Positions 18,501-36,995 of a DNA stretch of 64,000 nt are shown in pieces (within the stretch, counting starts at the first letter, position 1; every line of letters begins with the position of its first letter). The DNA lies in contig ML996689.1 of the NCBI GenBank assembly GCA_010356995.1, positions 762,691-826,690 on the forward strand, in the 5' to 3' direction. The stretch comes from Trichodelitschia bisporula. Its lineage: Eukaryota. The notes under the pieces are model-generated. The model was given only the letters and a program-made list of their open reading frames with translations, was not told the DNA's origin and did not search any database. The translations under genes were made by a program, and so were the position numbers.

Positions 18501-21092
18501 GCAAAAGGTATCCTAACCGTGGGGCGGGAAACGGGCTGCGCCTCAGGGCTTGCGCGGTCAGTGTCGATTGTCGGGGCGAAAAAGCGCTTGGATCTCCTTG
18601 CATGTTTTCCCTCCTGCGGGACGGTGCAGAGTGCAGATGTCCAAACTGAACCTCAGCTGGACAGGGGTCAGTCGAAGTGTGGCTATGTCCCACAGTGCCC
18701 GCCAACCGGCTTCCGCGTGCCGAGAGAATGCGGCCGTTTGGAAAACCTGCTCCCCCACACACACGACGACGACAGATGCGATGGCAACATCATTTGCCCG
18801 CCTCTACCTCATACGTCCCATAACACGGGATCTACGCCTATTGCAGGCCGGCTAATGCTCCAACTTATTGATGAACAGCGATAGACCGCTCCGCATTTCG
18901 CGTTTCGGACACACGTTCGGCCTGCACGTTGGAGTCATCGCTGCAGGCGAGCGACATGAAGCCGTCGGTCCTCCCACAGGTGCAGCTGCTTGGCCGTTGA
19001 CGATGCAAGGCGGCGGGGGGGCGTGTCGGTGACTCACCTGTTTCGTCGCGTCCCTTTTGACCCGCGACTAAAACGGCATCGCAGCTTTTCGAGAACCTTG
19101 ACGCGTGCTTCTTTCGCGTTCTTCTGCTCAGCTTGCCCAGTCTTCTCCGTCAGCTGCCATTGTTGCACCACGCTTGCTGACCGCCTGCCTTTTGCGCGTC
19201 TGTTTCGTCATCTGCGGCCTGCCGGTCTCACGACGCGCCGTACACGCATTCATCCATCCACCTTTGCTAACCCAGTCGCGAGCGCGTATTTTCCGGGCCG
19301 CCGTCGTTCTGTCGTGAGGCCGTGGGCCCGGGGGCCTTGAACCTGAGTGCGGTTATTCACGGCTTCGACGAACCACCTCCCCCTCCCCGGCACCTTCCAC
19401 TATTTTTGCCCGGTCTCACCAGGATGCAGTGTCGCCATTTATCCTCTATCGATATTGTCTTCTTCAGGATATGCCCGCAGCGCCCACCCTTGATATTGCA
19501 GATATGCAGAACAAAGTCCGGGTAAGTTGCGTGGAAATCGTCGGACCAAGTCCGCATTCGTGCTCGTGCTCCTCCAACATCCCTTTACCCATTTCCTGAA
19601 ACAGCGCCCGCCCCTGCCCACCCCGGCCTTTGAGACCCGTCAAAAGGCGCCCCGGTCGATCCTCATTGCTGGGGTTTGAGCTTCTCGGACATGCGTCCAT
19701 ATCGTTGGCCACGTCCGGGGTCCGGCTGCAGTTGTCGTCGTTCGGTTCGTCTCGACGCCTGATCTAGGTCCCCTCCCTTGGTTGCCGTCTTCCGCACCTC
19801 TGCCTTGCCTTGCATGCCTGGGGTCTTGCGGGCGAGGCGCGCGAAACGCAGGACATGGCCTAGGCAATCTTGAGGAGGCTTGCGCGGAATCGGGTGCGCT
19901 TCTGCTTGGTCGACGAGGACAAGCCCCCCGCTGTCCGCCTGTGCGTGATATCCGCACCCTGGCGGCATAGCGCGATGGGCGGATAGCAGAGCTGGTGCAG
20001 GTAGATCAGTCGAGGTTGAGATTGTCGACTGGGGGGGGAGATCGAGATGTGCCGGATGAGGAATTGGAATGTGCGTAATGCGCTCCTGGATGCGTCGTGG
20101 GGGCGTGAAGAGCCGAGATGCCGCCGGGGCGGGCTTGCGTCACTGCGAGGGGTTGCTGTATGGGATAGGACGACTTTTGTTGGGGATATTTCGACGGTGG
20201 AGGGAGGGATAGGATCCCATTGCTAGGTATGCGGCCGGAGCGGTGGCTGCGGTGTTTTGCGGCGGATTCGGGTACTCTCGGTGATGCGTTGATTTAGACA
20301 CTGGACAGCCTCGCGGTTACCGGTAGGATGGAGACACGGACAAGGAGACGTTATGCCATCCCAACAGTCTCGCCTCGTTCCGGGGCAAGACGGTGAAGGG
20401 TAAATCGGCATCCTGATCCAGGCTACGCCGTGATGGCATGTCTCGAGGACATTAGTGCCATGCGGTAGACGCTTTTCGCGAATGTGATGAAAAGCTGGGG
20501 TATGAGACATTGACGAGTGCACTGTCCTCGCCGCTCCGCAGCTCCGCATCGTGGCGGTCTTTGAGAGCGGGGGAGGCTGGAAAGCGATTACCGGTTTGGG
20601 AAGGGTGATGATGTGGGATGTTCGGTCACGTGGATATATGGTTTTGGGGTGACGATGGAGACAGGACTCGGACCGAAGAGGCGCTGAAGCTGTTTCTGTG
20701 GTACCGTGTTTGAATGTAATCGGACTGTTTGGTTTGTTCGAGTTGTGAGGTCAGCACAATTGATGATGAAACGGAACATGCCGGCAGGGTCGAGGTCTGC
20801 CCTATTCACGACACCGAAAACCTTGAGTCACGGGCTCAACGTCGACACCGCGACAGTCAACGACAACACAACTGTTCACGGCCCTCTTCAAATATATCAC
20901 TAACTTTTTTCTCTCCCACTAAAATTGCCATTCCGTGAAGCTCCGCAGACCTCCTACGTCCTGTAAAGTAAAATTCTCACAACGCTTCCCTCTAAGCGCA
21001 GCGTGACCCAGCTCCGCAACCCCCCCGAACGCCTTGCAAGGCCTCTATCAAAATCCCAACTCCTCCAACCCCTCCACCAAACCCTCACCACC

Positions 21093-32969: not shown

Positions 32970-33863
32970 TTGAATCTAATCCGCAAGTGGTGAAGTCGAG
33001 GTACATCGAAAGGTAGTAGAACTCTCTGTGCGGGCATAAGGATATAAATTAAATCCTTCTAAACGACTAGTTCTAAATGTCCCTTCTGCTCCTCCCTTCT
33101 CGCCGGTCGTGAGGATCGGCTACAAGGGTTATGGCGCGGAGTCAGGCGTGCTCCAGCATTTATGAGTATGATTGCCGCACGCTGAGGGAGCGGAGACCTC
33201 ATCCGGTTGAAAATAGCCCGAACTTTTCAAGGTCCCCCCTAACTTGATCTAGCCCGCAAGTGGTGAGTCGAACTACCTGGAGAGGTAGTAGACCTGCCAG
33301 TACGGGCATGGAGATATAAATCACAATCCTTCTAAACCACTTAACTGCCCCTTCTGCCCATCCCTTCTCACCGGCTGTGAGGACCGGCTACAAGAGTGCA
33401 CGTCGCAGAGTCATGCGTGTTCCGGCAATGCAATCGGCGCACTGATACATTGCCACACGCCGAGGGAGCGGAGACCTCGCCCGGGACCTTCGCCCGGAAC
33501 CTGTAAGGCCCGCTTGATTTAATCTATCCCGCGGGCAAGGGTCGGACTACATAGAGAGGTAGTTGACCTGTAAGCGCGGGCGTGGAGATATAAATTAAAA
33601 TCCTTCTGAACAACTTAACTGTCCCTTCTGCTCCTCCCTTCTCACCAATCGTGAGACCGGCTACAAGGATATGGTCGCGGAGTCATGCGTGCTCCGGCAT
33701 TTATGAGTATGATTGCCGCACGCTGAGGGAGCGGAGACCTCATTCCGTTACAATATCCAGAACTTTCAAAGTCCCCGCTTGACTTGATCTAGCCCGCGGG
33801 CAAGGGTCAGACTACATGAAAGGTAGTTGACCTGTTAGCGTGGGCGTCGAGATAGAACTTTTT
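32970..33863 (+). repeat. Tandem array of ~270-bp structured units (3 full plus 1 partial)
   Basis: GATA(T/G)A anchor at 33041, 33313, 33587 and 33851 (spacing 272, 274, 264); conserved hairpins with compensatory changes. Confidence 0.9.
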
Positions 33864-34122
33864 AACGGGAGTTGATAGTGTCTGCGGAGAGAGCGTGCGG
33901 ACAAGGCTGCCAAGCCGTCTAGCGGAGATGCGAGACTGGAGTTGAAGGGTGGAGGGTTTTACGCATCGGAACAATATATCGCCATGTCGATTGAACTATG
34001 AGTTGGATCGTGCATTTGAGGACAGATTCGGCGTTATGGAGAGTGTCCAATGACTAGCTTGGCAAACAATGAATGTTAGCTCAGTTCCGCGATGCTGATG
34101 TTCAAAGGTCGCTAATGTTGAA

Positions 34123-34203
34123 GGGTACAGAATCTCGTTTTTTCTCAAGTCGTGACACAGCTTGCAATCTCGGGTCAACCTTTCGTATAGATCATCATTG
34201 CCC
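34123..34203 (-). pseudogene. Duplicate of the intron-6 snoRNA with box D changed to CTGT (intron 7)
   Basis: Direct repeat 34072-34280 vs 34319-34530; ATGATGA intact at 34198-34192, CTGT at 34130-34127. Confidence 0.55.
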
Positions 34204-34369
34204 AACAGGTGCACTGAGAGATCTCATAAGAAACGTCCAACAGAGAACTTGGGCACAGGTGCCGTCGGTGACTTACAGAAGGGGATACTTTGGACATTCT
34301 AAACAGAGCCAAACCTGTAATGTTAGCTTAGTTTCGCAATCCTGATGTTCAAAGGTCGTTGATGTTAAA

Positions 34370-34455
34370 GGGCTCAGACTCTCGTTGTTCTCATGTCATG
34401 ACGCAGCTTGCAATCTCGGGTCAACTTCTTTCGTACTTATCGGTCATCATTACCC
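34370..34455 (-). ncRNA. Intronic box C/D snoRNA candidate (intron 6), no target assigned
   Basis: ATGATGA 34450-34444, CTGA 34377-34374, terminal stem GGGT/GCCC. Confidence 0.7.
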
Positions 34456-34625
34456 AGTTAGAGGATTGATCGATTCCATAAGAAAGGCCCAAAGAGCTTG
34501 GGCACAGGTGCCGTCCGTGACTTACAAAAGAAGACGCCGTGAACGCTCTGAACCAGATGAAATCTGCGAAACCATCAGCCTTGACCTGAGGAAGTCAAGT
34601 ATCGACCATTTGCGACCATTTCGAG

Positions 34626-34703
34626 GCGGTCAGGTCACGTAAGAATTCATCATCGAGGGGAAACCCCACGGTCGGTCTACTCTCTTGTTTTTCATCATGC
34701 CAC
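34626..34703 (-). ncRNA. Intronic box C/D snoRNA (intron 5), no target assigned
   Basis: C ATGATGA 34698-34692, D' CCGA 34675-34672, hairpin GGGG-TTT-CCCC, C' ATGATGA 34653-34647, D CTGA 34633-34630, terminal stem GTGG/CCGC. Confidence 0.82.
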
Positions 34704-34837
34704 AATGTTGAAAGATTAGCTGACAGCGACTTACAAGCAGGGATAAAGGCGACGGAGCATGAGGTGAGAACCGAGACCGGGCACAAAACTGTTAGGCCCT
34801 CTTTCCTAAAACCCAGAGTGTAGTCGAGAAGGGAAGG

Positions 34838-34925
34838 CCGTTCGGTTGAATAGGTGTTTCCATCTCAAGGGCCAGGTTCGTGTAAGATCGAAAGATTTAG
34901 CACTCAATAAGCATCATCAAAACAA
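34838..34925 (-). ncRNA. Degenerate box C/D snoRNA candidate (intron 4)
   Basis: TTGATGA 34920-34914 and D-like CCGA 34845-34842, at the same relative intron position as its neighbours. Confidence 0.4.
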
Positions 34926-35053
34926 GATGCGGAAGAGTGTGGCTGGCTCTTACAGCAGTGGGGAATGGCCTCAGCCGATTCGGGGTTTCCTAGATCGTAC
35001 GCAATGTCAGCTAGCTTCCAACCATTCCCACAGTCGTCGAGCGTTTCAAGAAG

Positions 35054-35137
35054 CGGTAGTCAGATATGTTTTTATCTCCATGTCAAGGTTTCAACCTTGG
35101 TGAGACTTCTTTCCTCTAAGTCATCATGAAAGTACCG
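35054..35137 (-). ncRNA. Intronic box C/D snoRNA candidate (intron 3), no target assigned
   Basis: ATGATGA 35127-35121, CTGA 35063-35060, terminal stem CGGTA/TACCG, internal hairpin CAAGGTT/AACCTTG. Confidence 0.7.
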
Positions 35138-35849
35138 AATATTGTATGATAGACAGATGTTTGTCACATCAGTGCGCAAAAGGGCTTACCGATTCAATAG
35201 AGATAGCATGCTACAGCAAGTCGGCGGTGACTGGACGGAAGCGGCGTTCGCAAGTTCGGAGGCGTATGGTGATTAAGAATCGTTCTGTGCACGTATGCTT
35301 AGAGCAACCAGAGTCTTCTATGCTGGAGTTAGTATCCTGCGACAATATTTGACCCTCCATGGGTATATGCAGGAAGGTGCCGTTTCATCGGATGCATGCA
35401 TCACGAGAGAGCTAGGTGGGAGTGTCGCTTAAACATTGCACACCGGTGGGCATATGTGCTTCAGAATGGATATTTGGAAGTCACTGAGTACGGAAGATGG
35501 CATGTCTTGAGCTGGCACAATAGCAGATAGGCTTAGAAGTTGACTTCATGAGTGCTCAGAGCAGCTTGTTTGCTGACAACAAAGACTACGGAATGACGCA
35601 TGACAAGACGCATACCAGATGCTGATACCAGCAGTTCGCTTCCTGAAGACCGAGCTAACAGGCTGAGGTTTTGCGCAAACCAGCATAGGCATTATGTGAT
35701 ACCAGATACATGTTATCAACCGAAGTGCAAAGGACACAAACACCCAGTGAGCCAGCACCCAGAAGCCAGTCAGAAGTGGAGTACCTGGCGTGTCGGAAAA
35801 GCGTTAGCATGTGTTGTTACTGTAAGCGGAAACAATGTAGAGAATTGCT

Positions 35850-35980
35850 GTGGTCAGAGAGAAGATTGGTTCACCAGTGGACGATGAAGCACAAAAACCA
35901 GAGCCGGAAGGACCGATCGGCTTCTGTACAGCACCGAACTTTGTAAGGCTAAGGATGATACGAATGATTCATCATAGGAG
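35850..35980 (-). ncRNA. Box C/D snoRNA, predicted U6 2'-O-methylation guide (mgU6-47/SNORD7 type)
   Basis: Box C ATGATGA 35975-35969, box D CTGA 35857-35854. The guide AATCTTCTCT next to D is complementary to U6 AGAGAAGAUU, and D+5 falls on the last A of ACAGAGA. Confidence 0.8.
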
Positions 35981-36487
35981 CGGCGCAGAGTTGAGAATGT
36001 CAAGTGATCACTTACCATGCTGTCAAATAAAGGACCATTGCAATGATCACTTATTGAAACGCAAATATGGTTGAAGCCAGCGAAATGTTGCCAGAGGCGC
36101 TGTAGTCATTGGAAGAGGCAGTGATGAGGGAATGAAGAGGGTGAGTTGGAGTGGGTTGGAGAGTAGAGGGTGCAGAATGTCGCCTTTTATAGGAAGATGC
36201 AGGTGGCCTGTGCTCGTCCTGCTTCAGTTAATCTGCGGCGGTAGCAGGAGCGATGAAGCAGTGGCAGAAGTGATCAAGCAATGGCAGGAGCGATCGAGGT
36301 TGCCTTCGCTTGCAGTGCAGCCAAGGGGCCACCGGAAAAACGTGGCCTCAGCGTAAGTTGGCCGTTCACGGCAGTGACGGTTGCTAGCCAGCAGGTTTGG
36401 CGTCGAAGGTGCATGAGATGACTCCTCATGGAAGCTGTCCGACCGCAGTATGGCACGTGTCTGAGATATCTGAAGCGTTGAAGGATC

Positions 36488-36995
36488 TCAATCCATCACA
36501 CCGCCGGTACTTTCAACCACACGAACGACGTCGTCTTTGATCTCCGGCACCGCTGAGATGAGTTCTTTGGCGAGGACGTCCCGGAACTGTGCAAAGGCCT
36601 CCGTCTTGCCCTTGAGCTTCTGGTTCTGCTTCATGACAAGTTCCACAAACTCGCGCGTATAGATATCAGGGTTTCTACCCTCTTGGACGTATTCGATGAC
36701 TTCCGGCGGAATTGTAAATTGGAGATTCGGTACGGTTTCTTCGAGCGCCGCGAGATTGTTCGCAAGGTCGGTGCTGAGGCATGTCAGCAACGGTTGAAGC
36801 TACGCCTCCGGCGAGAGCAACATTTCGCGTTTCATGGCAGCTTCTGTCGGAGCCCCCTGGTGCTCAAGAGCCTGCACAATGAGATTGTACAGATTTTGAG
36901 TGACACTCTTCATCTGGTCTGTCGGACGTCAGTGCGATGCAAGAGTGGAGGATAGAGATCCTACCGTCAACCTGGGCGAGCGTTGCCTGAGCCAT
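36488..36995 (-). CDS. MED10: Mediator subunit Med10/Nut2, 3 exons
   Basis: IPPEVIEYVQEGRNPDIYTREFVE..NQKLKGK motif. Upstream exons MAQATLAQVD and QMKSVTQNLYNLIVQ are joined by two short introns. Confidence 0.93.

Follow-up and report, generated by a model that had tools for sequence, protein, structure and literature searches.

A probable non-coding host gene for small nucleolar RNAs of the box C/D class, with a candidate double U6 guide, in Trichodelitschia bisporula

What is made from a run of seven long introns on the minus strand of Trichodelitschia bisporula contig ML996689.1 (GenBank assembly GCA_010356995.1), and what might the product act on? The locus lies in a stretch of 64,000 nucleotides (contig positions 762,691 to 826,690 of the forward strand), which we call the window and to which all coordinates refer. 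A sequence-only reading of this DNA had proposed a non-coding host gene that carries an array of small nucleolar RNAs (snoRNAs) of the box C/D class, most of them with no recognisable target. Our analysis indicates that the locus is probably a UHG/SNHG-type host gene, non-coding and bearing snoRNAs, of a kind for which filamentous fungi have already provided examples. Its first cassette, sno1, is best read from its sequence as a guide for two sites in U6. The case is built on the sequence anatomy of the locus, on the splicing of intron 1 and on complementarity to U6 at the correct spacing.

Intron architecture and splicing

The exons and introns of the model that were placed by RNA-type contigs or by splice signals are as follows.

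36016..36160 (-), exon 1; 5' end assumed; joined to exon 2 by RNA-type contigs (runs X3 and X4) that cover it
35785..36015 (-), intron 1, 231 nt, GTAAGT..CTAAC..CAG; splicing confirmed by RNA-type contigs
35616..35784 (-), exon 2, 169 nt; under RNA-type contigs
35323..35615 (-), predicted intron 2, 293 nt, GTATGC..TACTAAC..CAG, with no C/D cassette
34990..35189 (-), predicted intron 3, 200 nt, from splice signals
34789..34953 (-), predicted intron 4, 165 nt, from splice signals; 3' splice site doubtful
34564..34734 (-), predicted intron 5, 171 nt, from splice signals
34315..34525 (-), predicted intron 6, 211 nt, from splice signals
34054..34276 (-), predicted intron 7, 223 nt, a duplicate of intron 6, from splice signals and alignment

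All seven introns have a branch site of the form CTAAC, CTGAC or CTGAT followed by a YAG end, and six have a GTAAG donor, that of intron 2 being GTATGC. The exons that they delimit (exons 2-7) are 169, 133, 36, 54, 38 and 38 nt long. Because only 3 nt separate the branch A of intron 4 from the AG, this acceptor is doubtful. The two introns of the upstream neighbour, the Med10 gene, are 46 and 48 nt (read by hand and consistent with the frame); thus, the contrast that the sequence-only reading had drawn between seven long introns of 165-293 nt and short ordinary ones holds, the host introns being 3-6 times the length of those in Med10. The same reading had called the exons non-coding. Indeed, the longest ATG open reading frame (ORF) of the spliced model has 78 amino acids, and none of the 11 locus ORFs of at least 60 amino acids scored above the Pfam cut-off.

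Splicing was read from RNA-type contigs of two runs on one sample, X3 and X4, whose RNA nature is a guess. In each run, one contig joins 35784 to 36016, which corresponds exactly to predicted intron 1; the joint was mapped at 35781|36013 (cut +3), and the removed segment has CT..AC ends on the plus strand. Unspliced intron 1 is also present, in one low-depth contig. Contig cover in X3 and X4 is zero over 33744-35531, which says nothing either way on the expression of introns 2-7, and contigs of this kind cannot show transcript ends. Intron 2 has no cassette, and its fold is no better than that of its shuffles (z 0.19), for which reason we rejected it as an H/ACA or other structured RNA. Additionally, exon 2 together with the covered part of intron 2 folds at shuffle level (z -0.03).

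Box C/D cassettes and the U6 guides of sno1

One cassette was found in each of the six other introns, and each is named after its intron.

35850..35980 (-), sno1; box C 35975-35969, D' CUUA 35947-35944, C' UGGUGA 35876-35871, box D 35857-35854
35055..35136 (-), sno3; box C 35127-35121, D' CUCA 35104-35101, C' AUGGAGA, box D 35063-35060
34812..34920 (-), sno4, a weak cassette; TTGATGA 34920-34914, D-like CCGA 34845-34842 or CUGG 34816-34813
34625..34703 (-), sno5; box C 34698-34692, D' CCGA 34675-34672, C' AUGAUGA 34653-34647, box D 34633-34630
34370..34455 (-), sno6; box C 34450-34444, D' UUGA 34424-34421, box D 34377-34374, stem GGGU/GCCC
34123..34203 (-), sno7, a copy of sno6; box D CUGU 34130-34127; 6-nt deletion in the D' guide

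The first of these has the clearest predicted target. In sno1, a 21-nt guide precedes D', a 67-nt insert with a strong internal hairpin (z -2.16) separates D' from C', and a 13-nt guide precedes D. The D guide, AAUCUUCUCU, directly abuts CUGA and forms 10 perfect base pairs with U6 AGAGAAGAUU, a segment that is invariant in all 15 distinct Rfam-confirmed U6 sequences. The position paired at D+5 is A47 of human-length U6 (L131), within ACAGAGAAGAUU. For the D' guide, UCAUCCUUA(G), the partner is UAAGGAUGA in the U6 sequence L128, over 9 bp and, after one mismatch, 3 bp more; here D'+5 is the second A of AAGG in the internal stem-loop AAGGAUGA, which is human A70.

Human A47 and A70 are equivalent to A41 and A64 of Schizosaccharomyces pombe U6. 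In the accessible text of Porat et al. 2023 (PMC10484740), A41 is 2'-O-methylated under the guidance of snoZ30 (mgU6-47) and A64 under that of sno530, an atypical RNA with a near-consensus C box and a non-canonical fold that was found only in 2023. Since both sno1 guides are in register with these two methylated sites, we read sno1 as a double U6 guide, its D guide probably directed to A47/A41 (ACAGAGA-A) and its D' guide to A70/A64 in AAGGAUGA. The sequence-only reading had seen one U6 guide at the locus, and this is borne out, with both guides of sno1 now fitting U6. Each guide thus resembles its S. pombe counterpart in the D+5 register, sno1 D fitting A41/A47 and D' fitting A64/A70; the difference is that S. 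pombe uses two separate RNAs, whereas a canonical C/D RNA of 122 nt holds both guides here. One such RNA could account for the A41- and A64-equivalent methylations of U6 that are split over two RNAs in fission yeast. Human mgU6-47/SNORD7 is, we presume, the counterpart of S. pombe snoZ30. Rfam models, that of SNORD7 included, gave no match to sno1 at E-values up to 10. The U6 guide snoRNAs of S. pombe are reportedly tied also to work by Zhou et al. from 2002, known to us through a citing paper.

Another fungal RNA invites comparison with sno1. According to the part of Canzler et al. 2018 (PMC5824354) at hand, the Nc_CD_54 family is found throughout Pezizomycotina, and its D' guide was reassigned to position U6-55 of Neurospora crassa. 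Like sno1, Nc_CD_54 is a long C/D RNA (about 125 nt) with an internal GC-rich hairpin and a U6 target, and near its 3' end N. crassa CD54 reads CCAACAAUCUUCUC, close to ACCAAUCUUCUCU in sno1. The two differ in that the sno1 D' guide is aimed at another U6 site and does not have the GGGGCCAU element; additionally, the AAUCUUCUC element of CD54 is out of register with box D.

The cassettes also stand out as a set. Over both strands of the window (128 kb of strand), the motif RTGATGA was counted 28 times, compared with 15.7 times in shuffles (standard deviation 3.9). Six of the 28, all of them ATGATGA, are minus-strand copies within 34192-35975, a span of 1.8 kb in which about 0.2 would be expected. 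ATGATGA is the box C of sno1, sno3, sno5 (where it is present in two copies), sno6 and sno7, while sno4 has TTGATGA. A canonical CUGA box D is found in sno1, sno3, sno5 and sno6; the box is defective in sno7 (CUGU) and in sno4, which offers only CUGG or CCGA. Of the earlier claim that six introns hold box C and box D or D-like cassettes, the number of cassettes stands, and only four of the six are canonical. Terminal stems, read by hand, measure 4 bp in sno3 and sno6 and 3 bp in sno5 and sno7, with none obvious in sno1 and sno4.

In sno1, sno3, sno5, sno6 and sno7, the 3' splice site is 59-73 nt away from the end of box D, and the branch A, by hand count, is 50-55 nt away. The latter distance matches the optimal spacing that Hirose and Steitz are said to have described for intronic C/D snoRNAs in 2001. 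Purines make up 74-88% of each of four guides (those of sno3 at D', sno5 at D' and sno6 at both D' and D), compared with 46% of the strand, so that their targets would be CU-rich. A separate RTGATGA cluster at 20484-20769 on the plus strand, with three motifs in 300 nt, does not have the layout of box D and terminal stem and is probably no snoRNA.

Target searches and the remaining units

To search for targets of the guides we used RNAs that were all heterologous; species-specific spacers, expansion segments, transfer RNAs (tRNAs) and the fungal-specific parts of small nuclear RNAs (snRNAs) fall outside this test set. Ribosomal DNA (rDNA) was taken from fungal-type metagenome contigs fetched by the ITS1-F primer, and 18S, 5.8S and 26S were placed with Rfam in one of these, L017. 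As positive controls we used guides from Liu et al. 2009, and in L017 the snR39b-type guide was exact in 26S and the snR56-type guide was found, with one mismatch, in 18S. For the snRNAs, a U6 motif scan of genome contigs yielded 20 loci on eukaryotic contigs inside bacterial metagenome-assembled genomes (MAGs); all 20 were confirmed by Rfam, representing the 15 distinct sequences, and U1, U2, U4 and U5 were taken from two of the same assemblies. In viral contigs, a 15-nt U6 motif was present at 21 loci, of which 20 were scanned and proved not to be U6, and a 19-nt motif gave no loci. Two of the assemblies labelled as bacterial MAGs carry repeated clusters of U1, U2, U4, U5 and U6 (L129, L130, L134 and L144 of G001; L135, L146 and L147 of G002; L148-L165), and the DNA of these contigs is evidently from eukaryotes and was placed in bacterial bins.

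With no anchoring, an antisense search of the whole locus against the ribosomal RNA (rRNA) of L017 returned 11 segments scoring at least 10.5, where ten shuffles returned 5-16, and none of the 11 stood at the D box of a cassette. When guides were anchored at D or D', the best scores against the 18S, 5.8S and 26S of L017 were 6.0-8.5 compared with shuffled means of 8.0-8.8, the sno1 D guide reaching 8.0. We also ran 15 anchored guide definitions, allowing Watson-Crick and G-U pairs, against 106 rDNA loci (308,219 bases) and obtained no recurrent hit at a conserved position; the hits were scattered, of low complexity or confined to a single lineage. Because no rRNA match was recurrent or above shuffles, the conserved rRNA core is excluded as a target on these sequence comparisons. 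A match of the sno6 D' guide to the 5' external transcribed spacer (5' ETS) was shared by L021 and L028, two metagenome contigs related to each other.

Against U1, U2, U4, U5 and U6, no guide other than those of sno1 scored above its own shuffles, and an unanchored snRNA scan gave 28 hits compared with 16-33 in 20 shuffles. These results agree with the earlier statement that the remaining guides could be matched to neither rRNA nor snRNA, none of them rising above shuffles on the heterologous molecules. No tRNA genes were found in the window.

Three of the remaining units, sno3, sno5 and sno6, are well formed. The 82-nt sno3 has a GGUA/UACC terminal stem, a 16-nt guide and a 6-bp hairpin, and its minimum free energy fold yields both the stem and the hairpin. 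The C, C' and D boxes of sno5 are perfect, and it has a GGGG/CCCC hairpin. Two candidate matches of sno5 were dropped as chance level: its D guide can form 11 bp with U6, including 3 G-U pairs, in one U6 variant only and with 3 of 200 shuffles equal, and its D' guide has a hand-read 9-nt match to exon 1 where about 0.5 is expected. The 5' portion of intron 5 holds GCUAAUCUU (34712-34720, minus strand), a 9-nt perfect complement of U6 AAGAUUAGC. This segment lies upstream of the sno5 box C, outside the cassette, and was set aside because such counts are at chance level.

The weak cassette sno4 has ACUACACU directly before CUGG (34813-34824, minus strand), which forms 8 bp with the branch-site-recognition region of U2, AGUGUAGU; 17 of 100 shuffles did as well. 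An 8-mer of ACUACACU is also common with the U2-Am31 guide of N. crassa CD29, which may mark a decayed relative or chance. With the 8-mer alone shared, sno4 as the cognate of Nc CD29 was dropped as chance level.

Intron 7 duplicates intron 6 along the full length of both (blastn identity of 80% across 211 columns; 87% mean column identity), and blastn found no further copies of them in the window. By segment, identity is 85% in the 5' part, 100% in box C, 90% in the middle between D' and C' and 82% in the D guide. In contrast, the D' guides of sno6 and sno7 are only 42% identical, compared with 85-90% in the neighbouring segments. Across all six units the mean column identity is 43%, and units other than sno6 and sno7 cannot be aligned. 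With a guide that diverges faster than its surroundings and one copy losing its box D, the pair offers a snapshot of snoRNA birth and death.

Competing explanations and related systems

The processing, stability and methylation of the locus RNAs are most likely those expected by analogy with established box C/D small nucleolar ribonucleoproteins. The host gene would be transcribed by RNA polymerase II from just downstream of Med10, with one box C/D RNA in each long intron that holds a cassette. Each RNA would be released by splicing, debranching and exonucleolytic trimming and would assemble with Snu13, Nop56, Nop58 and the methyltransferase Nop1/fibrillarin; the RNA would then direct 2'-O-methylation to the nucleotide that pairs with its guide at the fifth position upstream of box D or D'. 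For sno3, sno5 and sno6, which are well-formed guides, the targets would lie in neither the conserved rRNA core nor the conserved segments of U1, U2, U4, U5 and U6; such targets would presumably be species-specific, in pre-rRNA spacers, expansion segments or other RNAs. Most likely, judging from their boxes, sno7 (CUGU) and sno4 (with no canonical D box) are decaying or inactive copies. Read in this way, the locus yields one U6 double guide, three well-formed guides for which no target was found, two defective units and one empty intron, and a fungal genome gains a snoRNA host gene that was previously unannotated.

The 5' end of the proposed gene depends on two further features.

36184..36191 (-), TATA box TATAAAAG, putative host-gene promoter, read from the sequence
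36488..36995 (-), Med10 gene, three exons, upstream neighbour; Pfam PF09748, E 2.6e-30; exons read by hand

A minus-strand TATA box ahead of the introns had been noted before, and TATAAAAG is indeed present at 36191-36184, starting 297 nt 3' of the Med10 stop codon. The part of PMC4138321 available to us defines no promoter motif shared by snoRNA and ribosomal-protein genes in filamentous fungi.

Several observations weigh against a host gene of this form and against sno1 as its U6 guide. An RNA-type contig of X4 runs unbroken from Med10 over the TATA box into exon 1; the start site of the host gene is therefore unsettled and its promoter unproven, and read-through from Med10 is possible. Junction support is limited to intron 1, introns 2-7 being predictions, and RNA-type contigs cross the predicted intron 2 donor with no junction, ending at 35540 and 35532. 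The snoRNA units are known here from genomic sequence, so that the mature RNAs are inferred, and all seven units were read in one genome. Over the whole window, Rfam reported no family at gathering score and, in E-value mode, only two chance-level matches; the best match within the locus was snoZ161_228 at sno3, with 18.1 bits compared with a gathering score of 45. The U6 set was non-fungal, and the sno1 D' duplex has only 8-9 contiguous bp there (8 bp outside L128). With CUAAGGAUGA, which we take to be the fission-yeast-type U6 sequence, that duplex would be 10 bp. Lastly, 2 of 200 shuffles of each sno1 guide did as well against U6 as the guide itself.

How far do these points carry the alternatives? 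That the cassettes resemble snoRNAs by chance, as the missing Rfam match at gathering score and their detection in the DNA would allow, we regard as very improbable: six ATGATGA boxes cluster on one strand, each cassette occupies its own intron at regular spacing, and two U6 guides are in register with two methylated sites. An account in which only the first unit works is unlikely. Here, Med10 read-through or a short two-exon sno1 RNA ending inside intron 2 would be the transcript in the contigs, and the downstream cassettes would be silent relics or a separate transcription unit. It draws on the contig that leads from Med10, with no break at the TATA box, as far as exons 1 and 2, and on the intron 2 donor that is crossed with no junction. 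However, introns 3-7 keep their donors, branch sites and acceptors, as well as C/D boxes of canonical form whose distance to the branch site is constant, which would be unexpected for silent relics, and the contigs are silent on where the transcript ends. The two remaining alternatives accept the host gene and concern what its other units do. The cluster may be an ordinary one in which sno3, sno5 and sno6, perhaps with sno4 and sno7, guide poorly conserved sites of their own species (rRNA expansion segments, 5' ETS, internal transcribed spacers, tRNAs or fungal-specific snRNA parts) and look like orphans on account of the heterologous test RNAs. We consider this a serious possibility, if one somewhat short of even. 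It accords with the 5' ETS match of the sno6 D' guide in L021 and L028 and with the several species- or lineage-specific rRNA and tRNA targets of N. crassa snoRNAs in Table 1 of Liu et al. 2009 (PMC2780460). In the accessible text of Canzler et al. 2018 (PMC5824354), moreover, seven of nine Aspergillus fumigatus orphans were reassigned to families with known targets, which cautions against orphan calls from single-sequence searches. Against an ordinary cluster stand the 15 guide definitions with no recurrent hit at a conserved position in 106 rDNA loci, and the failure of any guide to exceed shuffles on the L017 rRNAs although two N. crassa control guides were found there.

Alternatively, sno3, sno5, sno6 and sno7 could be true orphans: young, born by intron duplication, with no rRNA or snRNA target, and acting on other RNAs or, as pseudogenes or neutral passengers, on none. 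This appears rather unlikely. No test gave these units a target, Rfam holds no relative of theirs and the printed N. crassa guides no match; introns 6 and 7 are recent duplicates whose D' guide has diverged well beyond its surroundings, with box D gone from one copy; and four guides are far richer in purine than the strand. Yet the absence of a target among heterologous RNAs is weak evidence, the units come from a single genome's sequence, and sno3, sno5 and sno6 cannot be aligned with one another, so that a common recent origin is shown for sno6 and sno7 only. The specific proposal that the four units are lineage-specific orphans born in this way, whose purine-rich guides address CU-rich non-canonical sites such as pre-mRNA polypyrimidine tracts and pre-rRNA spacers, is doubtful. 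If true, one transcript would combine a canonical U6 double guide with what, on a small scale, would be the fungal equivalent of the orphan arrays of mammals.

A non-coding host gene, the reading that we prefer, has precedents in fungi. The available portion of Liu et al. 2009 (PMC2780460) reports 55 C/D snoRNAs in N. crassa, two of them orphans, and six clusters whose UHG-like non-coding host genes hold a single snoRNA in each intron; clusters I-III of Euascomycetes are likewise intronic in the part of Luo et al. 2013 (PMC3596301) that we could draw on. The earlier background statement that intronic snoRNA hosts exist in filamentous fungi is thus documented. Like these hosts, the T. bisporula locus belongs to a filamentous ascomycete and is non-coding and multi-exonic, with one C/D RNA per cassette-bearing intron, canonical splice signals and short ORFs. 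It differs from the N. crassa set in that none of its guides matches any of the 55, as far as their printed sequences and duplexes could be compared by eye. The locus was also considered as cluster I (snR72-78), II (snR57-55-61) or III (snR41-70-51). It is none of these clusters, since none of its guides fits an rRNA site of the snoRNA families concerned. In fungi as a whole, 68 C/D families are recognised and six are still orphan, according to the consulted part of Canzler et al. 2018 (PMC5824354).

The sequence-only reading had also likened the locus to the mammalian SNORD115/116 arrays. SNORD115 and SNORD116 lie in SNHG14 as 29-48 near-identical tandem copies and are imprinted and tissue-specific. 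The locus shares with them a non-coding host, one C/D RNA per intron and guides with no known canonical target. In contrast, it has six unlike units, of which one pair is duplicated and one unit has a clear U6 target. The analogy therefore fails, since only introns 6 and 7 are duplicated, the other units are not alignable, and there is no long near-identical tandem array.

Finally, in a DNA run, X2, minor contigs stop at 34523 and 35134, alongside a wild-type contig that is deeper. The minor contigs run on into letters that we take to be a loxP site. In some molecules of X2, the segment 34524-35133 thus seems to be flanked by an engineered cassette junction; this block contains sno3 (from its third base), sno4 and sno5, and a deletion strain for part of the locus may already exist.

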